A stretch of DNA of 30,381 nt, taken from the UHGV virus genome UHGV-0119412. One strand, 5' to 3'. A program made the translations under genes and the position numbers. The notes under the pieces were generated by a model. It was not told the DNA's origin and ran no database searches. It saw nothing but the letters and a program-made list of their open reading frames with translations. The DNA is from a virus. Of this stretch, positions 1,715 to 23,037 are shown one piece after another. Numbering within the stretch: the first letter of the stretch is position 1; every line of letters starts with the position of its first letter.

Positions 1715-4159
1715 TCAATAGTCGTGGGTCATGTTGGCACGCTGGCGGGCGCGTTTATCGCGCTCAATCTGTTCGAGCGTGTCGCGTAGTTGTCTGTCAA
1801 GCTGATGCCCCGGCGCAACACCTCCCGGCAGATTGATGTTGTATTCGCTTTTGCTCTGGTCAATGTAAGAGCGCCCCGCCGGTGCGGTAACTGGCTGATA
1901 AGCCTGATAGCCGCCATATGTGCTGGTTGCCGGGATGTAGGAATTACCCTGTGTGGCGGCATTGGTTTTGGCGGCGGTCTTGTCGAGGCTGTCCGACTCT
2001 TTGTTGATGATGCCGAGCTTTTCGAGAAGCCAGTCGACACCGCTGCGCAGCTTGTTAAAAACATTGAGCGGAGCCATCAAGGCAGAGGCCAGTGCCTGAC
2101 CAAATATGACGCCGACATTTTTGCAGCTATCAAGCGTTTCCTGCGTGGCCTTAACCGGTGCTATCAGGTCTTTAAACCACTGCCAGACGCCGCGCAGTTT
2201 CTCGCCGAGACCATCAAAAATGGGAGCCAGTGGAGCTAACATTTCCCCGACTGGGGCAAAGGCACTCATGATGCCTTCAATCACTCCCGAGAAAAATGCG
2301 CTGATGGGCTCCCAATATTTACGGATGAGTAGCGCCCCCGCCACAATCGCCGCACCGACGGCCACTATCGGCCAGGTAATCGCACCGAGCGCTGTCGCAA
2401 TGGCACTACCGACGACAGTAAAGACCGTACCCAGCACGCCAGCAGCGGCGATAATTGCATTAATCCCCATGACAACCGGCCACGCAACGAGACCAATGCC
2501 GCCGATGATACCAATCAGCGCCAGCGCACCACCGGCGATGATGCCGATAGTTTCCGCTAACTCCTTGTTGTCTTTGATCCAGTCATCAAGCTTTAGCACA
2601 TACCGTGTTGCTGTCTGAGTTAGCTGACGCAATGAGCTATCTTGCTGGTCATAGAGGTCAGTGCCGACCGCCTCATATGCTGACTGGAACTCCTTGAAGT
2701 CGCCGCCGAGGTTATCCTGCATAACCTTGACCAGCTCCTCTGTTTTACCGTCTGAATCCTTTATCGTGGCAGTTAGCTTATCGAGTTTTCCGCTTGCCGC
2801 TGCCGCCATAAGGACACTTGCAGACTTCATAGCCTCCTCGCCGAATATCGTTTTCACGTACTCGGCCTTTTGTGAGGTACCAAGATTGTTGCGCTTAAAA
2901 CTGGCCTGCATTTCTTTCAGGATGGTAAATAGCGGGCGCGTATTGCCTTTGCTGTCTGAGGTTTTAACTCCCAGCTCTTTGAGAGCATCGTATGCTTTGC
3001 CTGTGGGTGCCTGTAGTCTCGTTATAACAGCAGCGCCGCCAGTCCCAGCCATTGACCCCCTGATGTTATTATCATGAAGTGTGCCGGTAATCGCCGCCGC
3101 CTGTTCAAGACTCACCCCAGCATTTTTCGCAACAGGGGCAAGGTAACTTAATGAGTCACTTAGTCCCTGAAAATCAGCGGTGGTTTTGTTCATCGTGGTT
3201 GAAAGAACATCACCGATATGCGCAGCCGCGTCATTAGAAAGTTGAAAGGCGGCTTTTGTCCCCATCAACAGTTGCGCGTTTTCCTCCATTGTTTTTTTGT
3301 TTGCAAGCGACAGGTTGAGAGTCACAGGTGTCATGGCCGCTATAGCCGCCGCATCACCACCACCTTTTGCAATGATAATCTGCGCACTGGCTGCATCATC
3401 AGCAGAAGCGGCTGTATTGTCACCGAGCTGGCGCGCCTGTTTGCGTAACGCCTGCATTTCTGGCGACTGCTTATCGACCCCGAGCACAGCCTGCAGCTCG
3501 GAGTTTTTTTGCGCAAAGTCATAACCGGGCATCAGCAATTTAACCCCGGCCATCGTTCCCGCTGTCGCAATACCGACCCCGGCAGCACCTGCAGCGGCCA
3601 TGTTACCGGCAAGCTCCTTACCCGATTTATATCGCTCTTTCACTCGGTTTAGGTGCGCCTGCTGTGCGCTGACCTTCGCCAATGCTTCACGCTGCCGGTT
3701 GAGCTGCGCCGTCGTCTCGCTGATACGTGTTTTAAGCCCCCGCTCATCGTTTGCCAGATTGCGGGTATTGATACCGGCGGCACCCAGCTCGCGTTGCTGG
3801 CGTTTAACCGACTCGGTGAGGCTGTTGTATTTAACCTGCAGCCCCTCGGCGGCACGTTTTGCGGATTCGAGCACCTGTGCCTGCGCTCGCGTCGGGCGCT
3901 CAGTATTTTTGAATTGCGTGGCAAGCGCTTCAGCCTCGCGCTTTGCCTTCTCCAGCGACTGGCCGGTTACGGCCAGTTGAGCGCTGGTTTTGCGAAAGCC
4001 GTCGATTTTCGCGGCCTGCCCGTTCAGGTCACGCAGCCCTTTTTGTGTGTCGCGAATATCGCCCGACAGGGTTTTACTCGCGGTCTGGATGGATTTAAGC
4101 GGTCGGGTCGCCTGGTCGACCGCTTTCAGCAAAACCTCAAGTCTCAGGTTATTACTCAT
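1715..4159 (-). CDS. T: Tail tape measure protein (gpT)
   Basis: 814-aa ORF with a coiled-coil-like Ala/Gln/Leu-rich N-terminus and Gly/Ala-rich hydrophobic segments; P2 gpT is 815 aa; follows E/E'. Confidence 0.9.
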   Translation of the reverse strand: MSNNLRLEVLLKAVDQATRPLKSIQTASKTLSGDIRDTQKGLRDLNGQAAKIDGFRKTSAQLAVTGQSLEKAKREAEALATQFKNTERPTRAQAQVLESAKRAAEGLQVKYNSLTESVKRQQRELGAAGINTRNLANDERGLKTRISETTAQLNRQREALAKVSAQQAHLNRVKERYKSGKELAGNMAAAGAAGVGIATAGTMAGVKLLMPGYDFAQKNSELQAVLGVDKQSPEMQALRKQARQLGDNTAASADDAASAQIIIAKGGGDAAAIAAMTPVTLNLSLANKKTMEENAQLLMGTKAAFQLSNDAAAHIGDVLSTTMNKTTADFQGLSDSLSYLAPVAKNAGVSLEQAAAITGTLHDNNIRGSMAGTGGAAVITRLQAPTGKAYDALKELGVKTSDSKGNTRPLFTILKEMQASFKRNNLGTSQKAEYVKTIFGEEAMKSASVLMAAAASGKLDKLTATIKDSDGKTEELVKVMQDNLGGDFKEFQSAYEAVGTDLYDQQDSSLRQLTQTATRYVLKLDDWIKDNKELAETIGIIAGGALALIGIIGGIGLVAWPVVMGINAIIAAAGVLGTVFTVVGSAIATALGAITWPIVAVGAAIVAGALLIRKYWEPISAFFSGVIEGIMSAFAPVGEMLAPLAPIFDGLGEKLRGVWQWFKDLIAPVKATQETLDSCKNVGVIFGQALASALMAPLNVFNKLRSGVDWLLEKLGIINKESDSLDKTAAKTNAATQGNSYIPATSTYGGYQAYQPVTAPAGRSYIDQSKSEYNINLPGGVAPGHQLDRQLRDTLEQIERDKRARQRANMTHDY

Positions 4160-5236: not shown

Positions 5237-6415
5237 TTAGCTGTTGACCGATTCGGCCAGATTCACCAGATATTTATCGGTGATACGCTGGCGCAGGGTT
5301 AGGCTTTCCAGTGGTGGAACCGGTGTATAGTTGTAGTCGATATACAGTTTCCCGGCCTTGAGGGTTTCCTTATCGTTCGATTCCTCGTCGAACCAGCATT
5401 CACCGTCCACGATGTAGCCGTTTGATTTCAGCTCGCGGAATTTGGCGTTAATACCGTCGACAATGTCACGGATAAGCGATGCGGTGATGGGCTTATCGAC
5501 CGCCCACATGTGCGCCTCGGCCATCGTGTCGGCCAGCACCTGCGCGGTGCGGGTGTAGTTCTCAAACAGGAAAAGCGGGTCATCAGAGCAGGTGCGGTTA
5601 CCCCAAAAGCGGAAGCCATCCTTACGCACCAGTGTCGTGACCCCGGCCTCGTTGAGCAGATCAGCATCGGTGCCGGATGCCTGCAAATCCCAAAACACTG
5701 ACGCACTGATGCCGGTAACACCCTGCACGCCGACGTTAGACAGGGTTTTGTGCCAGCCGACGGTCTGGTCGATATAGGCACGCAGGCCGAGTGCGCGCGC
5801 GGTGGCGTAGGCTGTTGCGGTGGCGTTCGCGGTGGTGTTCCATGCGAGGAAATCAGGCCAGATAAGCATCAGTTCGCGCTGGCTGAAATTCTCGCGATAG
5901 GTCATCGCCTCGGAAATAGTCTTACAGCCCCATGCACTGACATAGCCAAAGGCGCGCAGGCTGATACAGACCGACGCAAGTGCGACTGCGACCTCTTTGG
6001 TATCGAGCCCCGGCACGCCGAGAATGCGCGGCTTAACACCGGTGACCGCTTCGGCAGTCAACAGCGCCTTGATACCGGTGTATTTACCGTTCTCATCCGT
6101 GCCGCCGATGATATTGGAAATGGTCTGCGCTTCCGCGTCTTCTCCGGTACCTTCGGCAACACGCACGACAACGGTGACGGGCTTTGACTGGTCGGCGATG
6201 GCCTGCAGGGAGGCAGACAGCGTGCCTTTTTTACCGGCTTTCGCAATGGCGCTCTGCACATTGGTAATCAGTACCGGCTCGTTGAGGGGAAATGTCGCGG
6301 CATCCGCATCGCTGGCCGTGCAGACCATGCCGACGATTGCAGTCGCGACCGTAGAAATAACACGCGTACCGTCATTGATTTCGATGACCTGCGTGCCGTG
6401 GTGAAAATCACTCAT
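5237..6415 (-). CDS. FI: Contractile tail sheath protein (gpFI)
   Basis: 392-aa ORF, first gene of the FI-FII-E-T-U-D operon; P2 FI is 396 aa. Confidence 0.9.
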   Translation of the reverse strand: MSDFHHGTQVIEINDGTRVISTVATAIVGMVCTASDADAATFPLNEPVLITNVQSAIAKAGKKGTLSASLQAIADQSKPVTVVVRVAEGTGEDAEAQTISNIIGGTDENGKYTGIKALLTAEAVTGVKPRILGVPGLDTKEVAVALASVCISLRAFGYVSAWGCKTISEAMTYRENFSQRELMLIWPDFLAWNTTANATATAYATARALGLRAYIDQTVGWHKTLSNVGVQGVTGISASVFWDLQASGTDADLLNEAGVTTLVRKDGFRFWGNRTCSDDPLFLFENYTRTAQVLADTMAEAHMWAVDKPITASLIRDIVDGINAKFRELKSNGYIVDGECWFDEESNDKETLKAGKLYIDYNYTPVPPLESLTLRQRITDKYLVNLAESVNS

Positions 6416-6515
6416 CCGGTTAACTCCGTGGTTAGTGGGCGAGTGTTATTGTCCTGACTGGTCTGGTGAGGGGCTATTTATCGGCGATGGATGGCTGATG
6501 GCACATAAACAAATC

Positions 6516-6542
6516 ATAAAAAAGACGGGCATCTGCCCGCCC
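6516..6542 (-). terminator. Rho-independent terminator downstream of the tail fibre chaperone gene
   Basis: On the minus strand a GC stem (CGGGCA-GA-TGCCCG) is followed by TCTTTTTTAT; it lies in the 130-nt gap between the chaperone gene and FI. Confidence 0.55.
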
Positions 6543-6546
6543 TGCG

Positions 6547-6972
6547 TTATTCCGGTTTAACCGGCCACTCAATATCCGGTGCCGTGGTGGTGTCGACCGC
6601 GTTCAGCGCCTGAATATATTTCATCCACGCAATCAGGCTGGCCTTGTCATCGTCGCTGATGATGTCGAGCTGCAGCTCAGTCTGCCACAGGCTGATTGTC
6701 GACTGCGCTTCATTAAGTAATACACCTCTCTTTCTTTCTGCATCAGCAGCCAACTCCTCAGGAGAAGGCAACGGAATATCCAGCCATACGGGATAACCAT
6801 TCTCATCCACCCCTCTTACTTTTCCCTCTGGTGGCTCCTGCATAAAATCATCGGCAATATTTCCGTCAATTTCTATTCCATCATCAGGCCATGTGCCTGA
6901 TTGTTCATAAGCTGCCTTCAGCGCAATCGGGAAGAATGCATTTTTTTTAGCACTAAATACATAAGTCTGCAT
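6547..6972 (-). CDS. Tail fibre assembly chaperone (gpG/Tfa-like)
   Basis: 141-aa ORF immediately downstream of the tail fibre gene (1-nt gap); acidic; AT-richer than the phage core. Confidence 0.7.
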   Translation of the reverse strand: MQTYVFSAKKNAFFPIALKAAYEQSGTWPDDGIEIDGNIADDFMQEPPEGKVRGVDENGYPVWLDIPLPSPEELAADAERKRGVLLNEAQSTISLWQTELQLDIISDDDKASLIAWMKYIQALNAVDTTTAPDIEWPVKPE

Positions 6973-6973
6973 T

Positions 6974-7939
6974 TTATCGCCCTATGGAAATATAACTAAA
7001 ACGGAAATTCTGAGCGTTATCACTTGCCGCAATACGCCACGATGAATTGCTGATGTGTTCGAAGTTAACAGCAAGTACAGGTGTAGTTGGTGCCGTGGGA
7101 TTTGACTGCACAGCATCGGACATAATGCTGACTGAAACCAGTGGCTGATTTGGAAACGGTATCGGAAAATTTCCACTGATAAAACGCGTTGTATTACCTG
7201 CATAGGTTCCGAATTGCACAACATGCCCGCTTGGCAACTTAAACCATCCGCTTCCTGAAGCAAATGCCCCCATATCCGGCACTTGATTCGCCGCAGTCCC
7301 CACATCTCTCTTAGCCGCCTCTTTAAGACCCAAATTTTGCAAAATTTGGCTTACCAGACCGGCATCAACCATTTCTTTAAGCGCGTTCGCAATCAATGGG
7401 TACTGCTTATGTGGATTGGCGGCCTCAACATGTTTTTTCATCAGGTCATCAGCATATCCTTTCACCTCGATAATCTTGTCGTCGACATACTGGCGCGTTG
7501 CCAGCACGACTGCCGGGTCGATTTTCAGGGTGATTGCCGATGTGCTCGACACAATCAGAATCATGCGAATGGTCTGCGTGCGACCGCTTCCCTCCTGCAG
7601 TTGTGGCTTGTAGGTCTCCGGACAGTTCGCCACGGCAATCAGAATACCATCATCGTCATAGAGACCAATCTCGCGGATCCAGAAACCACCTTCATTCTCG
7701 GGAATAATCTGTTCCGCGATAATCTGACTGGTATTGGCCGGGTCAACGGTCAGCAGGTTCAGCGGCGCGATGCGTTTCTGGTTAATGAGCTTCGTCTGCG
7801 CCGGGTCAGGGGTCGGCAACGTACCATTCGCATCACCGACGGCCATCTGCGTCAGGTTGAGTTTGGTACCGAGTGCCGCCGCGTTCGCCAGCCGCGCCGC
7901 GCCCTGATTGGTCAGAATGGCAAAATATTTTGCGGTCAT
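6974..7939 (-). CDS. Tail fibre protein, gpH-type N-terminal domain with a short divergent C-terminal domain
   Basis: 321-aa ORF whose N-terminus (MTAKYFAILTNQGAARLANA...MAVGD...GGFWIREIGLYDDDGILIAVAN...YKPQLQEGSGRTQTIRMILIVSS) matches the conserved baseplate-binding domain of P2 gpH as recalled; it is much shorter than P2 gpH (669 aa). Confidence 0.8.
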   Translation of the reverse strand: MTAKYFAILTNQGAARLANAAALGTKLNLTQMAVGDANGTLPTPDPAQTKLINQKRIAPLNLLTVDPANTSQIIAEQIIPENEGGFWIREIGLYDDDGILIAVANCPETYKPQLQEGSGRTQTIRMILIVSSTSAITLKIDPAVVLATRQYVDDKIIEVKGYADDLMKKHVEAANPHKQYPLIANALKEMVDAGLVSQILQNLGLKEAAKRDVGTAANQVPDMGAFASGSGWFKLPSGHVVQFGTYAGNTTRFISGNFPIPFPNQPLVSVSIMSDAVQSNPTAPTTPVLAVNFEHISNSSWRIAASDNAQNFRFSYISIGR

Positions 7940-9451: not shown

Positions 9452-9799
9452 TTAACTCAGTGAAACAGTGGTTGAAACTGACGCACCGGTATCGGTACGC
9501 ATCCCGGTAATATCGACATACATCTCGCCAGCGTCGCCGGCCTCAAAGCTGATGGATGTAAGCCTGATGCGCGGCTCCCACTTCTGGATAGCCGAATAGC
9601 ACGCCACCATAATTTGCAGCCTGAGCGCCGGGTTTTGCGGCATATCAATCAGCGCCGACAGAAGCGAGCCATATTCACGACGCATCACCCGCGAGCCGAC
9701 CGGCGTCAGCAGAATATCGCGCATGCTCTGGCTGATATGCTCGGTATCGCTGATGCCAAGGCCGGTATTTCGGTTCATCCCCTGATAGCGCGCCGTCAT
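9452..9799 (-). CDS. W: Baseplate protein gpW
   Basis: 115-aa ORF; P2 gpW is 115 aa; between V and J. Confidence 0.8.
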   Translation of the reverse strand: MTARYQGMNRNTGLGISDTEHISQSMRDILLTPVGSRVMRREYGSLLSALIDMPQNPALRLQIMVACYSAIQKWEPRIRLTSISFEAGDAGEMYVDITGMRTDTGASVSTTVSLS

Positions 9800-10437
9800 A
9801 ACGGTGCCCCCGTTTGCCCGCCGCTGTCGCCCGGGTGTTTATGGGTGTGGAGTACCTTGCCATTAGACGACAGTGACCCGCCGGTATGTTCGATATTGCC
9901 GCTCATCTTGCCGCCTTTCTGCACCTCAAGCGTCGCCGTCGTTAGCTTATTGGTGCAAATCACCTCCGGGGTGTCGAGGGTGATACTGGTCGAGGCTTTC
10001 ACCAGTACCAGCGGTACGGTTGCGGTGATGGACTCCGATGCCGTCACGTCGGCCGTTTTTATGCCGCTGACCGTCAGCGCGCCGGTTTCGGGCTCGTACT
10101 CAATGACCGCACCATCAGGGAAAGCCACATGCCACGCATCCGCCGAGGCCGACGGGGCGGGGTTATCGTCGGAGAAAATACCCGGCAGCACGAAAGCGGT
10201 ATCAAGCTCGCCACCGATTGCCAGCAGCAGAACCTGCTCACCGACCGAGGGAGCCCACCACGTCCGCGAACGACCGGCGCGGGTGGTCAGCCAGTTCAGC
10301 CATGTAGTCTGGATCCCGCCGCTTTGTACGCGGCACAGCCCCTGCACAGTATCGACCTCAGTCACCACGCCTGAGCGGATGAGGTTGCGAATGGCACGTG
10401 CTAACTCTTGAATGGTGTTTAATGTGTTCATGAACAA
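9796..10437 (-). CDS. V: Baseplate spike/assembly protein gpV
   Basis: 213-aa ORF at the head of the V-W-J-I-fibre operon; P2 gpV is 211 aa. Confidence 0.8.
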   Translation of the reverse strand: MFMNTLNTIQELARAIRNLIRSGVVTEVDTVQGLCRVQSGGIQTTWLNWLTTRAGRSRTWWAPSVGEQVLLLAIGGELDTAFVLPGIFSDDNPAPSASADAWHVAFPDGAVIEYEPETGALTVSGIKTADVTASESITATVPLVLVKASTSITLDTPEVICTNKLTTATLEVQKGGKMSGNIEHTGGSLSSNGKVLHTHKHPGDSGGQTGAPL

Positions 10438-10568
10438 AGAATGCCGATTGTTAATGCCAAGAGCAAAACGATTCAGCTGTATGCTCTTCTACACAATTCG
10501 GTGTGCATTCATGTATCATTTGAGTGTTGAATCATTCGAAAATCACACAAAACATATGGCAGGTAGTA

Positions 10569-11405
10569 ATGAAAAGAACTTCATCTTTTAGGCGTACAAT
10601 AAGCAATATGAAATATATTATAGGTATCTTTTTTTTATACTCCGGGCTTATAGTAGGGTTGTCTGTTTATAATGATAACTACAACTCAAAATTCATGGAG
10701 AATTTTCTTGTTAATGCAAATTCTTCAATTTTAGACTTTCTTGTTTTGGGTGTGATTCTTTACTATTTTGAAAATAAAAGGCAAAATAAAGATGCTATTC
10801 ACGAACTAATTGAAGATCTTGAAAATCTGGCAAAGCATTCTTCTGCAGAACTGAATATTATGAAGATAAAAATCATACGTCAGTTAAATGCCAAAGGAAT
10901 ATATAACATTCAAGTTCCAAGGATTGAACTTGATAAAATGTCCACTATCAAATATTTACATTTTAAAGACGCTGACTTAACCGGCTTGAATATGAGTGAA
11001 TCATACATTAGAGATTGTTCTTTCGATAATTGCACAATTCAAGCTCTAAATATTACAGGCAATAGAGTTAAGAGTGTTAAATTCAAAAACTGCAAGCTAA
11101 GAAATATTAAGGCATTTAATACATGTTTTCAAAATGTTACTTTCGAAAACTGCAGTTTTGAAGGGGGGTATTTTACAGATAGCGAAATGAAAAGCTGCAT
11201 ATTAAAAGGATGTGATTTTAAATCCGTTACTTATGAAGGGGCTAACATGCGGAATGCAAATCTATTAAATTCAATTAACATTAGCGTTAAAGAACTTGTT
11301 AAAGCAAAAAACATAGATTATTTAATTTGTGATGAGCAAATTAAAAATGAAATAAGAAAGGAAAACCCAGCAATAAAAATATCTAGAGGAATAATACGAG
11401 GTTAG
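10569..11405 (+). CDS. Membrane-anchored pentapeptide-repeat protein (cargo/moron)
   Basis: Plus-strand ORF on the strand opposite to its neighbours, clearly AT-rich. Start chosen at the ATG at 10569, preceded by AGGT (the track ORF begins at a GTG at 10524). N-terminal hydrophobic helix (YIIGIFFLYSGLIVGLSVY) then tandem A(D/N)LxX-type pentapeptide repeats (DADLTGLNMSESYIRDCSFDNCTIQALNITGNRVKSVKFKNCKLRNIKAFNTCFQNVTFENCSFEGGYF...). Confidence 0.7.
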   Translation: MKRTSSFRRTISNMKYIIGIFFLYSGLIVGLSVYNDNYNSKFMENFLVNANSSILDFLVLGVILYYFENKRQNKDAIHELIEDLENLAKHSSAELNIMKIKIIRQLNAKGIYNIQVPRIELDKMSTIKYLHFKDADLTGLNMSESYIRDCSFDNCTIQALNITGNRVKSVKFKNCKLRNIKAFNTCFQNVTFENCSFEGGYFTDSEMKSCILKGCDFKSVTYEGANMRNANLLNSINISVKELVKAKNIDYLICDEQIKNEIRKENPAIKISRGIIRG

Positions 11406-11460
11406 GGAATCGAACCCAACTCAGTGGGCACGCCCACCTAGACACCAGTCCACCTCTATC
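11404..11460 (-). other. tRNA-like fragment (T-loop-like GGGTTCGATTCCC on the minus strand), not an intact tRNA
   Basis: The plus strand reads GGGAATCGAACCCAAC, the reverse complement of a canonical tRNA T-arm box; no complete cloverleaf could be folded by hand. Confidence 0.2.
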
Positions 11461-11486
11461 GCTGAGATATATAATAATTCTCAGCG
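11460..11486. other. Perfect 8-bp stem hairpin (CGCTGAGA / TCTCAGCG) with an 11-nt AT loop
   Basis: Seen directly, between the cargo gene and the gpS stop; no flanking T-run, so not a classic intrinsic terminator. Confidence 0.3.
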
Positions 11487-11495
11487 AATCCAAAG

Positions 11496-11951
11496 TCAAT
11501 GGCGTTGACATAAAGCATCCATAATTAAACTCTCAACTTTTTGTAAGTCTGATGAAGAGTATCCGAGCAACGGTCGCGCCTCGTACTGCACATCCCGGCT
11601 GTTGCGGTTTGGCCGGTCTTTTAGGCCGTACTGATGCACCCGCGCCATGCGCTGCACCTTGCCGGTAAACTCCACCACCGCCGCACTGTCGCTGCCTTTG
11701 GCTTTCATAAAGCGACTGGTGCGCAGTTTGGCGAACATTTCACGTTTAATCCGACCTTTCTTGCTCCGCACCGGCTGGCGCTTTCGTGCCGCATACGGGG
11801 TGCCGTCGGGTGCCTGCTGGCGCTTGATACGCTGTTGCTGACTGGTACGCAGCTTTTTCGCAACCTCAGCCGCCATTTGCCGACGTGCCGCCGGTGACAG
11901 GCTGGCAATCAGACCGGCAAGGCGTTCCTGCAGCGCGGTTAATTCACTCAT
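11496..11951 (-). CDS. S: Tail completion protein gpS
   Basis: 151-aa ORF; P2 gpS is 150 aa; overlaps the R gene end as in P2. Confidence 0.8.
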   Translation of the reverse strand: MSELTALQERLAGLIASLSPAARRQMAAEVAKKLRTSQQQRIKRQQAPDGTPYAARKRQPVRSKKGRIKREMFAKLRTSRFMKAKGSDSAAVVEFTGKVQRMARVHQYGLKDRPNRNSRDVQYEARPLLGYSSSDLQKVESLIMDALCQRH

Positions 11952-20331: not shown

Positions 20332-21336
20332 ATGGGCGCGGAGATTAATATTTTGGAAACTGATTTTAAAATAACCCTCGAAGGTTTCGCTACTGAGCAA
20401 GAAGCAAATAATATCGGTAATTTCACACTAGAAGCTATCCGAGCTTTAACAAAAAATCTCAATCTTGATATCTCCAAATTAAAATGCGTGATTGTTTCCT
20501 ATAACTTCAGTGAAGCTCTTCAAAAGGTAACATCCTCTTACCAACACAAATCCCCTAGTTCGTTTACCAATAGCAAACAGGGCGCAGCCGTCGGGCAGTT
20601 AGTAACAAAAATTGGCAATGATGGGCTATGTGAAGAATATACCCTTGTGCTATCGATTGATTTTTTTGTTGAGCTTTTCAATGATGGTAGCTTCTTAAAA
20701 CTGAAAGAAGAAGGATACCTCGCAGTCATCCATCGCATTCACCATGAATTAGTGCACGTACATGAAAAAAACTTACTAACATGCTTAGCCCAAAACTTTA
20801 CAGTCAACGAGTATGGTAGCGCGCTTCTTATCTCAGCCACGCGTGCATGGTCTGAATATCTCGCTAATTACATGTCTTCGGGGTCTGCCCCTCAAGAAAC
20901 TATCGATTTATTTTTAGAGAATCTTGACACTGTTGTAAATGAAGTATCTGACGAGATTGAAAAACTCATCTGGGGTTATAAGTACGGTAATATTTCTCTG
21001 AATGACATGTATCTCGAAGTAAAAAAACGTATCAGGCTAATCATCAACTCTTATGCTTATGCGATGGGTTATGTCCATTCTCTAAACATCAATATTAAAG
21101 AATACGATCCAAAGCTATCCCTTACACTATCCAACTCAAAGATAAGATATCAATTATCAGAATTAGGCATTGCTTTTCAGAATCTTTATGGGAAGTTTAA
21201 TGACCAGCACATTACAGGTTTTGGTGATTTTCGGGAGATAACAATAATCATTGATGAAATATTCAAGCAGTTTGGGCTTGTTTTAGAGTGTCCCGATTGG
21301 TCTGGCGACGGTGAACTCTACATACATGTAAATTAG
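20332..21336 (+). CDS. Hypothetical cargo protein with HExxH...NE motif (putative zinc-metallopeptidase-like), between portal and cos
   Basis: 334-aa AT-rich ORF. HHELVH at about nt 20740-20757, with NEYGS about 17 residues later, resembles the gluzincin HExxH-x(n)-E pattern. No obvious Shine-Dalgarno before the first ATG. Confidence 0.6.
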   Translation: MGAEINILETDFKITLEGFATEQEANNIGNFTLEAIRALTKNLNLDISKLKCVIVSYNFSEALQKVTSSYQHKSPSSFTNSKQGAAVGQLVTKIGNDGLCEEYTLVLSIDFFVELFNDGSFLKLKEEGYLAVIHRIHHELVHVHEKNLLTCLAQNFTVNEYGSALLISATRAWSEYLANYMSSGSAPQETIDLFLENLDTVVNEVSDEIEKLIWGYKYGNISLNDMYLEVKKRIRLIINSYAYAMGYVHSLNINIKEYDPKLSLTLSNSKIRYQLSELGIAFQNLYGKFNDQHITGFGDFREITIIIDEIFKQFGLVLECPDWSGDGELYIHVN

Positions 21337-21555
21337 TTTAATCATAGTAGAAACATAATTAGCAGTTTGAATCCTGCCACTCCTGTAAAGCCGCTGCTCC
21401 TGGTGGCTTTTCCATGCACACCACCATCACGCATCAGATGCGTCTCACGCGCACGAACACACCCGACCACCAACGAACCAGCAGCGACCACGACAGCGCC
21501 ATCACGACGCGCTCAGAGGATAATTTTTATTATTACGCATCACTGCTGGCGCGCA

Positions 21556-21574
21556 ATGCTTTCCCCGCCACGCC
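21556..21574. other. cos site (19-nt cohesive-end sequence, 186-type)
   Basis: The plus strand reads ATGCTTTCCCCGCCACGCC, whose reverse complement GGCGTGGCGGGGAAAGCAT matches the 186 cohesive end as I recall it (P2 differs at two positions); it lies in a GC-rich non-coding stretch between Q and the replication region, as expected. Confidence 0.6.
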
Positions 21575-21772
21575 TGCCCGCTTTATGGGGCGGTTTTAAT
21601 GCAGTTGCATGACCACTCTGGATCCCCGCCAGCTCTTGCGGCGCACGTACAAAACGGGTAATCCCGGCGCATGCAGAACCATGCACCTGTTGCATGCACA
21701 GCTTATTTATTGATAAATCACCTTAAATTTACAAAAATTACGGACATTGGTTCTTTCCAAACATGATAGCCT

Positions 21773-21788
21773 CTCGATAATTATCGAG
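21773..21788. promoter_or_regulatory. Perfect 16-bp palindrome CTCGATAATTATCGAG upstream of the 313-aa cargo gene (putative operator overlapping a -10-like GATAAT)
   Basis: Seen directly; ends about 14 nt before the GGAG Shine-Dalgarno of the ORF starting at 21812. Confidence 0.4.
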
Positions 21789-21811
21789 CCTATTTTTGAA
21801 CGGAGAAAGAT

Positions 21812-22753
21812 ATGCAAGGTGAAGTTGACGAACAGCAACCCAATGAGATTATGTCGGAGTTTGGATACTATCCAGTAGAAGTTAACATTGAGACTGAACA
21901 ATTTTCTTTGCTTACTTTACCTGGTCTCAATGAGAAAGTGGAGCGTGTTAACAATGATAAAAACGTTGTGAAAGGTTGGATATACCCTGGAAACCAAGAT
22001 GTATATAACCTTAATGGTGGCATATCCACAATGCCTTATAGTCACCGTGTATTCAGTATGCCCAAAACGCACACACTAAAATTAAAAAATACATCCTCGT
22101 TAGAAACTCTCAACTTTATTGTGTGGTGCCTTTCTTTTTTCAAGGGAATAAGATTGACAACCACTGACGCTGGTTTTTTAGATGCAACCACTATCAAGCC
22201 CACTAAGTTAACCGACTTTATTCTCGTTGGATGCTCTGAAAAAGAAATCATAGAACTGGCTCTTAATTATATAAATGGCAAACATAAGGATGCGCACTCC
22301 CCCAAAAGAATTGCGGCAGTGGTGCATGCACTATTCTTATCTCAAAACCCACAATACCTTTCTTTTGAAAAATTCCAGTACCTTTACATGGCACTTGATG
22401 GGTGCTTTGCTTTGTCGTGGGCTGAGCATGACAAGGCTCCTGATAAAAAACCGCCAAATCATTACAAGCGATTAAAGTGGATGTGCAAAATTTATGGGTT
22501 ATCAATTCCCACATGGGTGTCAGGTAAAAAAAACATTTCTGGCATCCGCAATGATAATTTTCATGAGGCTATTTTTTTTGGTCAACCGCTTGGTTTCTCA
22601 AGTATTAACAACAGTCAATATGGTAACGATATATTGCTGCAAATGCAGGCACTGGTATGTCGCCTATTAGCGGCAATACTGTCGGTTAATGATTGCAGTT
22701 ATCTCAAATCTTCGGTCAACTCACGAGATTACCATTCATTAAAAATAAATTAA
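21812..22753 (+). CDS. Hypothetical cargo protein with HEPN-like RNxxxH motif (candidate abortive-infection/defence RNase)
   Basis: 313-aa AT-rich ORF with a good Shine-Dalgarno (GGAGAAAGA) and the motif GIRNDNFHEAIFFG (about nt 22546-22563); it sits where P2 carries old/tin, between cos and the replication module. Confidence 0.65.
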   Translation: MQGEVDEQQPNEIMSEFGYYPVEVNIETEQFSLLTLPGLNEKVERVNNDKNVVKGWIYPGNQDVYNLNGGISTMPYSHRVFSMPKTHTLKLKNTSSLETLNFIVWCLSFFKGIRLTTTDAGFLDATTIKPTKLTDFILVGCSEKEIIELALNYINGKHKDAHSPKRIAAVVHALFLSQNPQYLSFEKFQYLYMALDGCFALSWAEHDKAPDKKPPNHYKRLKWMCKIYGLSIPTWVSGKKNISGIRNDNFHEAIFFGQPLGFSSINNSQYGNDILLQMQALVCRLLAAILSVNDCSYLKSSVNSRDYHSLKIN

Positions 22754-22760
22754 TACTAAC

Positions 22761-22823
22761 GCCTCGCGGTGCTCGTTGTTCAATCCCCGCCAGTACTGAA
22801 AGCGAGTTTCAGAACCGGCGGCG
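22761..22823. repeat. Copy 1 of a ~63-nt imperfect direct repeat with an internal short palindrome
   Basis: GCCTCGCGGTGCTCGTTGTTCAATCCCCGCCAGTACTGAAAGCGAGTTTCAG..., similar to the copy at 23167; internal palindrome CTGAAA..TTTCAG. Confidence 0.4.
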
Positions 22824-22827
22824 TTTG

Positions 22828-23037
22828 CTATCGTCGACGTGGTGGTGGTGCGTATTGTTTCGACCTGCTGATGCTATCCAGCTTGCCGTAATTATCCCTG
22901 ACTATTTCGGCACACCCGACCAGCTCTGCGGGTGTCAAATTCTCATTGACCATTATCTGCTGCAAACGATGAACGATGGCCATCAGTTTGATGCTTTTAG
23001 TTTTGTGCTGCGGTATTTCACCTGGTAGTCGATGCAT
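22828..23037 (-). CDS. Small hypothetical protein (69 aa)
   Basis: ATG preceded by GAGGGTG at appropriate spacing; lies between the two direct-repeat copies; no recognisable motif. Confidence 0.4.
   Translation of the reverse strand: MHRLPGEIPQHKTKSIKLMAIVHRLQQIMVNENLTPAELVGCAEIVRDNYGKLDSISRSKQYAPPPRRR

Follow-up and report, generated by a model that had tools for sequence, protein, structure and literature searches.

What does a membrane-anchored pentapeptide-repeat protein do between two tail genes of a prophage? The question is raised by the viral genome UHGV-0119412, of which a stretch of 30,381 nucleotides (the window) was analyzed here. The window carries a 186-like prophage (Peduoviridae) with its tail genes on the minus strand, and between the baseplate gene V and the tail completion gene S the GC content drops from 58-64% in the flanks to 29-34% in an insert at approximately 10450-11500. 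An earlier inspection of the letters without database searches (the sequence-only reading) had described there about 1 kb of AT-rich DNA coding on the opposite strand, and this description stands, with a 278-residue open reading frame (ORF) on the plus strand and neighbors matched by Pfam. A partner RNA gene had been overlooked, however, and it alters the likely mechanism: as judged from sequence comparisons, the mobile unit is the protein gene together with a putative convergent gene for a tRNA-like RNA. We propose that the insert is a two-part accessory module that could encode an RNA-controlled membrane effector, acting from the prophage by abortive infection of the toxin/antitoxin type, and we assign to this proposal a probability of roughly 0.45. 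The membrane topology and the toxicity of the protein, the transcription of the RNA, the interaction of the RNA with the protein or its mRNA, and the effect against other phages are the parts of it that we infer.

The linkage between both partners is visible at the end of the ORF. The sequence just 3' of the stop includes GGGAATCGAACC, which is the complement of a tRNA T-loop, and the C-termini of several homologues (…GIEPNSVG…, …RESNPTQ) are read-through translations of that complement. The element was found beside every Gammaproteobacterial family member examined, abutting or overlapping the ORF stop, in three subfamilies and down to about 25% identity; the overlap is of 10 nt in the window and larger in other subfamilies. 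Its T-loop motif was present in 20 out of 20 fetched loci bearing the gene, including the lambdoid context described below, and in none of the 79 loci without it. Furthermore, among the 2.9 million contigs of IMG/VR the DNA motif was found in 8, exactly the 8 that had been recovered independently by protein. With a covariance model built from the enterobacterial copies only, the element was the full-length best match in every locus of the second subfamily (about 25% protein identity; Plesiomonas, Aeromonas, Gilvimarinus and metagenomes). Both there and in the plasmids of Psychrobacter (approximately 25-30% protein identity over the two subfamilies), the top-scoring match lay at the ORF stop and antisense to the ORF. 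The same model showed no match in P2, 186, Midge, the loci with other cargo or the Paenibacillus locus. The search of species-representative genome contigs with the RNA motif returned one unrelated match, in a genome of Acidimicrobiaceae and with no tRNA there; evidently, the species-representative genomes lack these prophages. Regarding conservation, the element (about 106 bp) shows a pairwise identity of 59-82% between loci and the DNA of the ORF one of 59-78%, while the flanks (150 bp upstream and 100 bp downstream) are at background, with 45-61%. What distinguishes RNA-antitoxin modules, namely a conserved small-RNA gene linked to or overlapping a protein gene, is thus present at these loci.

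The element can be folded into a cloverleaf that comprises acceptor-like and D-like stems, a central hairpin of 6 bp whose sequence varies, and a T-arm closed by the canonical loop GGTTCGATTCC. In the 11 enterobacterial variants, 90% of the cells are paired compared with 44-56% for slid partners, seven pairs present compensatory changes, and the score was reached by 0 of 500 shuffles. When the first two subfamilies were aligned to the model, 93% of the cells were paired (38-57% in the slid controls) and compensatory changes were observed in 13 of the 19 pairs; here too, none of the 500 shuffles attained the observed score. Both the G-U pairs and the hairpin stabilities favor the minus strand, where the central hairpin is more stable. 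A putative promoter for this strand is located at the end of S, with its -35 box (TTGACT) overlapping the S stop codon and the cloverleaf beginning about 7 nt past the -10 box. In 15 of 16 variants the spacing of TTGACN is constant, and nAnnnT follows it after 17 nt.

As regards the identity of the element, it shares with tRNA genes and tRNA-like RNAs the canonical T-arm and T-loop, the D-arm-like hairpin, the acceptor-like stem and an own promoter of sigma-70 type. In contrast to a tRNA, its acceptor stem has 5 bp instead of 7, its D stem has 3 bp, no CCA is encoded, and the loop of the "anticodon" arm comprises 4-7 nt, 4 nt in the window copy, instead of the 7 nt of a genuine tRNA. Because no tRNA was called by ARAGORN in any locus, because Rfam gave sub-threshold matches only (tRNA-Sec with 14 bits in the window; best values of 14-24 bits against a threshold of 47) and because of the 4-nt central loop, we consider the element a tRNA-like RNA and rejected a genuine tRNA or tRNA-Sec. 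An integron attC site was also rejected, the R''/R' boxes being a misfit and the attC site of Gilvimarinus being a separate one downstream of the element. A small protein encoded by a 42-residue ORF on the minus strand (11383-11511), which runs across the element, was rejected as the reason for its conservation; coding is disfavored since the length of the hairpin region varies (24-29 nt) and the changes are compensatory. Sub-threshold Rfam matches to "IS009" (36-45 bits against 117) were observed on the minus strand of three loci (L012, 695-860; L016, 667-841; L013, 1518-1716). They fall within the region for tail-fibre assembly in related prophages of P2 type and are probably coding sequence and not RNA.

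The protein partner consists of a basic N-terminus, two transmembrane (TM) helices, a helical linker and a pentapeptide beta-helix. Canonical pentapeptide repeats had been recognized from the letters alone, and Pfam places them above the cut-offs (Pentapeptide_4, 1.8e-16, 60.4 bits, cut-off 38; Pentapeptide, 8e-10, 38.5 bits, cut-off 20.2); all 39 relatives also match the pentapeptide-repeat families (PF00805 / PF13599), whose hallmark is tandem repeats of five residues of the A(D/N)LXX type. Membrane anchoring was likewise borne out, but the single N-terminal helix proposed before has to be replaced by two, supported by hydropathy and by the structural model. In this AlphaFold2 model (predicted local distance difference test, pLDDT, 85; predicted template modelling score, pTM, 0.72), TM1 is followed by TM2, extended as a long helix, then by another helix and finally by the beta-helix, whose right-handed quadrilateral fold is predicted with confidence (pLDDT 94-97). 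The beta-helix is basic (net charge +3, isoelectric point (pI) 8.5), and 34 of the 39 relatives have a pI of 7.7-9.7. The charge pattern, with a basic N-terminus, a neutral or acidic loop and a basic segment after TM2, argues for both termini being cytoplasmic, separated by a short periplasmic loop of about 10-15 predicted residues. The best-conserved stretch lies outside the repeats and covers the lead-in to TM2 and TM2 itself (F-LVNANSSILDF-VLGV-LYYFE); D56, F42 and Y38 are nearly invariant across the subfamilies, and TM2 holds the conserved polar residues N, N, S, S and D. No Pfam family covers this membrane domain in the 39 members scanned. Over its full length the protein matches phrog_12514 (2e-142), of unknown function. 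An initial weak match to the RTasSLATT model of PADLOC was rejected as evidence of a SLATT domain: it appeared in one of the 39 members (E 0.003), with no Pfam SLATT, and is treated as compositional because the other 38 relatives do not show it.

The family is found on very different carriers. A search of 5.8 billion proteins yielded 29 clusters of close relatives, all of Enterobacterales except one of Paenibacillus, and a profile search against 1.8 billion representatives added about 25 clusters of equal length and architecture with 18-41% identity; the scans of metagenome and IMG/VR proteins contributed few extra loci. Five contexts can be distinguished: the S/V slot of P2-like phages, a lambdoid prophage, an island with a restriction-modification (RM) system, an integron cassette and small plasmids. 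Homologues of Klebsiella, Salmonella, Yersinia and Enterobacter (52-81% identity) are found in the S/V slot too, with the orientation unchanged. A form of 339 residues, with an N-terminal extension of about 60 residues, was found in Citrobacter and metagenomes (L008-L011; gene at 6001-7020) at the end of a lambdoid prophage, between a gene for a SRAP-domain protein and umuDC/dinI, and there the tRNA-like element is still present. Another relative adjoins an MvaI/BcnI RM system, and a third group resides on small mobilizable plasmids of Psychrobacter. A cassette of 1037 bp in Gilvimarinus, bounded by attC-like sites and part of an array next to an integrase, is taken up entirely by the ORF plus the RNA element. 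That array (Gilvimarinus japonicus, L124, 2400-10858) contains a dozen short ORFs on the same strand with attC-like repeats (…GCGGGCGTTA…) between them, and the integrase gene is adjacent. By its organization the array is a chromosomal integron, in which the putative protein-plus-RNA module forms a single cassette. The only Firmicute homologue fetched, from Paenibacillus sp. VT-400 (L118), lies upstream of an RHS toxin gene and 128 nt downstream of a tRNA-Ile gene (3797-3873) with the unusual anticodon TAT.

Concerning the site occupied in the window, the statement of the sequence-only reading that S and V are adjacent in P2 has to be corrected. According to its annotation, P2 carries there the non-essential orf30 on the opposite strand, with the terminator of S on one side and the activator site of the V promoter on the other; adjacency holds for 186, and the gap between V and S is of about 60-70 bp in 186 and Midge. 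The location "inside a tail operon" was not sustained either: given the position of P2 orf30 and the TGT-N12-ACA box of the window, the cargo lies between two late transcription units, the slot being located after the terminator of the operon whose last gene is S, before the V promoter and outside any single operon. The orf30, TO and Z regions have been described as the three regions of horizontal transfer of P2-like phages (PMC3091744; PMC6823313). The published surveys of defence hotspots in P2 that were consulted focus on gpA-Q (old/tin) and Z/fun, with tail-gene hotspots mentioned only in general terms.

The insert is rare and patchy. Of 5426 complete E. coli genomes, 14 contain it, as does 1 of 50,697 phage records; it is missing from 186, Midge, about 15 Yersinia phages and others, in which the V-S spacing is of 58-70 bp. 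Of the 76 IMG/VR loci in which V and S are both present, the gene occurs in 4 and other cargo in 17; in about 55 the junction is empty and measures 58-60 bp. Since most relatives lack the gene, comparison among related phages excludes a structural role for the predicted protein, and supports a non-structural, horizontally acquired accessory gene, the "moron" postulated before; its position between S and V, its deviant composition and its presence or absence among close relatives are the features that characterize cargo of the orf30 slot. As in P2, the cargo is AT-rich, non-essential, patchy and usually on the opposite strand. The difference is that the cargo of the window is accompanied by an RNA gene and is unrelated to Orf30, which is also a membrane protein; homology between both proteins was tried and rejected (BLASTP E 0.38).

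The other cargo of IMG/VR loci in this slot measures 0.8-1.5 kb, has a GC content of 33-42% and belongs to at least 11 unrelated kinds, and because of this diversity we regard the S/V slot as a small hotspot for single-gene cargo. Examples are P2 Orf30, an FRG-domain protein similar to the PADLOC candidate PDC-S15 (7e-38), and a DUF2971 protein similar to the candidate PDC-S31 (7e-41). Further cargo comprises HNH-like, four-helix membrane, UPF0489 and HExxH proteins and several without a match. Loci with other cargo include L026, L046, L068/L081, L054/L055, L047, L091, L031, L043 and L096.

How could the two parts work together? Under the proposal of an RNA-controlled effector, the membrane domain would act as the effector, by ion leak or as a pore, and the beta-helix would be a regulatory or sensing domain. 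The RNA would keep the system off, either through base pairing with the mRNA at its 3' end, an antisense pairing that is possible because the two genes overlap, or by binding to the basic beta-helix as oligo-dA does on HalA, the effector of the Hailong system. Once another phage infects, the RNA or the sensor would be perturbed and the effector set free. The proposal is favored by the membrane motif, which is better conserved than any other part of the protein, and a role in defence or exclusion is plausible considering the S/V slot with its PADLOC candidates, the RM neighbor, the integron cassette and the small plasmids. Hotspots of P2 and integron cassettes are known reservoirs of defence genes (PMC9122126, PMC13586616, 10.1101/2024.07.02.601686). 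A more detailed version can be imagined, in which the tRNA mimic would bind the beta-helix of an oligomeric two-helix pore and hold it closed, until a phage that cuts, modifies or sequesters tRNA-shaped RNA, or stops host transcription, frees the pore and aborts the infection; taken with all these particulars it is speculative, and we consider it unlikely. The same low expectation applies to the idea that such an RNA-gated effector would be a Hailong-like "guard" with a tRNA decoy, moving as a cassette of about 1 kb among prophage hotspots, integrons and plasmids.

Several observations weigh against the proposed effector. The fold of the single sequence is not unusually stable (z -0.8), so that the case for an RNA rests on covariation, and the joint covariation alignment was fitted to the model, includes one spurious row and consists of 16 mutually related sequences. 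In the clade of Salmonella and Enterobacter, the acceptor and T stems are partly broken, and the Paenibacillus homologue has no 3' element. On the protein side, membrane domains with conserved polar residues occur in non-toxic proteins too; apart from the rejected SLATT match, no defence-system model of PADLOC 2.0 recognizes the protein, and the HalA model of NCBIfam (NF051894) gives 44.9 bits against a cut-off of 250, with the repeat region alone aligning.

The convergent, overlapping and strictly ORF-linked RNA gene would also suit a selfish addiction module, composed of a protein toxin and an antisense tRNA-like RNA antitoxin (type I/III logic), that stabilizes the element carrying it and plays no role against phages. 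Small mobilizable plasmids and an integron cassette are indeed typical homes of toxin-antitoxin (TA) systems. Known type I toxins, however, are short peptides of less than about 60 residues, whereas this protein has 278 residues and a large conserved cytoplasmic domain; a sensor-like beta-helix would be superfluous for simple addiction, and the other cargo of the S/V slot looks defence-related. For these reasons we regard pure addiction as unlikely, although it survives better than the remaining alternatives, and addiction and defence are not mutually exclusive.

Doubtful is an explanation by superinfection exclusion, where an inner-membrane protein of Sie type blocks genome entry or another early step and the RNA is only regulatory or a structure of the 3' end. 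An inner-membrane protein encoded in a prophage cargo slot would suit such a function, and P2 Orf30 and several other cargos of the slot are membrane proteins as well. Nevertheless, the greater part of the protein, with the conserved beta-helix, is predicted to lie in the cytoplasm, the periplasmic loop being as short as described above, and exclusion leaves unexplained both the occurrence on integrons and plasmids and the strict pairing with the RNA gene.

It is similarly improbable that the element is a relic tRNA gene, or an attachment or recombination site marking the movement of the cassette, and that the protein acts alone. Integration of islands at tRNA genes is frequent, the homologue of Paenibacillus is close to a real tRNA-Ile gene, the T-loop is tRNA-derived, and the broken cloverleaf stems of one clade could be read in the same sense. 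But a relic should decay, and the conservation of the element equals that of the coding DNA amid randomized flanks; four helices are maintained by compensatory changes, the G-U pairs suit one strand only, and the -35 box stays at a fixed distance. Moreover, the element and the attC site are distinct sequences in the integron cassette, and the exchange in the P2 slot took place within S and in DNA close to V instead of at the element. Finally, a membrane-tethered DNA mimic protecting gyrase or some other DNA enzyme, the analogy with Qnr and MfpA drawn in the sequence-only reading, is very improbable because the repeat domain is basic and the cut-offs of the NCBIfam equivalog models are missed by far (MfpA, 28 bits against 360; Qnr, 27.4 bits against 240), the match in fold being generic to all pentapeptide proteins.

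The features of the locus are collected in Table 1. The ORFs near the insert match gpW, gpV (Phage_base_V, Phage_spike), gpS (Phage_tail_S) and gpR in Pfam, and the assignment of V agrees with the GenBank annotation of phage vB_EcoM-613R3, which is 99.5% identical. For the cargo ORF, GenBank uses in that phage the same start, ATG 10569, and the product name "YjcF"; GTG 10524 is also open, and elsewhere the gene is named just "pentapeptide repeat-containing protein". The TGT-N12-ACA box, which corresponds to the consensus for activators of the Ogr family, is located 64 nt before the V start and at an equal distance in the loci of Klebsiella, Salmonella and Enterobacter. The promoter of the cargo gene is given as a candidate only, since sigma-70-like sites are no more numerous in the region than in shuffled sequence. 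On the other side, the first 130 residues of the S protein are identical to those of 186 and Midge and the rest is divergent in the protein alignment: the foreign DNA runs past 11495, and the last 21 codons of S (11496-11561, minus strand) have been replaced, with a few positions kept. This suggests that recombination with a less closely related P2-like phage, one crossover of which fell inside S, brought in the cassette.

Table 1. Coordinates of the features of the V-S region in the window.
Feature	Position	Strand	Remarks
Baseplate spike gene V, left flank	9796..10437	-	ATG 10431, upstream TTG 10437; Phage_spike 3e-29, Phage_base_V 8e-19
TGT-N12-ACA box, likely activator site of the late V promoter	10478..10495		Phage backbone, not cargo
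Weak sigma-70-like promoter candidate of the cargo gene	10490..10519	+	TACACA-18-TATCAT; consensus scan, 9/12
Cargo ORF	10569..11405	+	278 residues plus TAG stop (11403-11405); GC content 30% (flanks about 60%); opposite strand to the tail genes
Predicted membrane domain	10611..10772	+	TM1 ~residues 15-34, short loop, TM2 ~residues 45-68; hydropathy and model helices H15-34, H40-87
Predicted cytoplasmic basic pentapeptide-repeat beta-helix	10905..11288	+	~residues 113-240; fold predicted
tRNA-like cloverleaf RNA element (putative)	11396..11460	-	~65 nt; convergent; 10-nt ORF overlap including the stop codon; covariance model 82.5 bits
Putative promoter of the tRNA-like gene	11471..11499	-	-35 TTGACT 11499-11494, 17-nt spacer, -10 TATTAT 11476-11471; 10/12
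Tail completion gene S, right flank	11496..11951	-	Phage_tail_S 1.6e-36 (Pfam)

Two additional observations were made in the window. An inverted repeat, GCTGAGA-(11 nt)-TCTCAGC, is present at 11462-11486, in the stretch that separates the -35 box from the tRNA-like element; it is restricted to the window-type copy and not conserved in the other variants, and it could be a leftover of the terminator of the S operon. The main defence hotspot of P2-type phages, from the portal gene Q to the replication gene A, is found at 20332-23028 (plus strand). Its low-GC ORFs (38-43%; 334, 313 and 111 residues), uncharacterized cargo in the defence locus that is known best, were screened for a possible partner such as a nucleotidyltransferase, and no match was obtained in Pfam or PADLOC.

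The S/V slot was already known; what appears to be new is the pairing of protein and RNA. Rfam, PADLOC and the literature that could be searched gave no description matching this pairing, and the same literature returned nothing relevant on pentapeptide proteins in defence or on adjacent tRNA-like elements. If the pairing is functional, it would represent a compact protein-plus-RNA module of about 1 kb, spread across the Gammaproteobacteria on prophages, integron cassettes and small plasmids. The module escapes the tools used here, with no PADLOC model, no Rfam family and just a PHROG of unknown function. Should the proposal be true, a tRNA-shaped RNA would join the short list of nucleic-acid ligands and antitoxins controlling membrane effectors, and pentapeptide repeats would have, after HalA, a second documented role in immunity as a regulatory domain. 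The neglected S/V (orf30) slot of P2-like phages deserves attention as well, with its at least 11 kinds of cargo, some of them already candidate defence genes.

Among known systems, Qnr, MfpA and AlbG present the same right-handed quadrilateral beta-helix and are the best structural matches. The mimicry of DNA by MfpA and Qnr depends on an acidic surface, and these proteins are soluble acidic DNA mimics, whereas in place of a soluble, strongly acidic DNA-like surface the cargo protein has two TM helices as an anchor and a basic beta-helix.

With the TA systems based on RNA antitoxins (type I TxpA/RatA; type III ToxIN), the module shares a small RNA gene tightly linked to the gene of a potentially toxic protein and the carriage on prophages and plasmids. 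Pairs of the TxpA/RatA type are transcribed convergently and overlap at the 3' end. The module differs from these systems in the size of the protein, with its large folded cytoplasmic domain, and in the RNA, which would be a tRNA-shaped cloverleaf and not a simple antisense RNA or a repeat array.

The closest mechanistic parallel is HalA, described as a combination of pentapeptide repeats with a potassium-channel domain; HalA is blocked by a DNA ligand (oligo-dA) and depolarizes the membrane once released (PMC13586616; PMC13275509). The order of the domains is reversed with respect to HalA (PDB 9nyi), the repeats of the cargo protein matching positions 22-130 of 338, the N-terminal part of the HalA model. 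Likewise, the IRK/Ion_trans potassium-channel domain was found by Pfam in none of the 39 family members, the two helices are joined by a loop that could not accommodate a pore helix plus filter, and no HalB nucleotidyltransferase was observed beside the gene in the loci whose neighbors were listed. A distant relative from Colwellia sp. (P0200, 293 residues) combines pentapeptide repeats with PF07885 (Ion_trans_2) in a HalA-like architecture, and may link both architectures in evolution. Because of the reversed order, the lack of a channel domain and of HalB, and the missed cut-off, the cargo protein is not a member of the HalA family. By analogy, it may nevertheless work comparably to HalA, with a genome-encoded tRNA-like RNA as the candidate ligand in place of the oligo-dA that is made by an enzyme.

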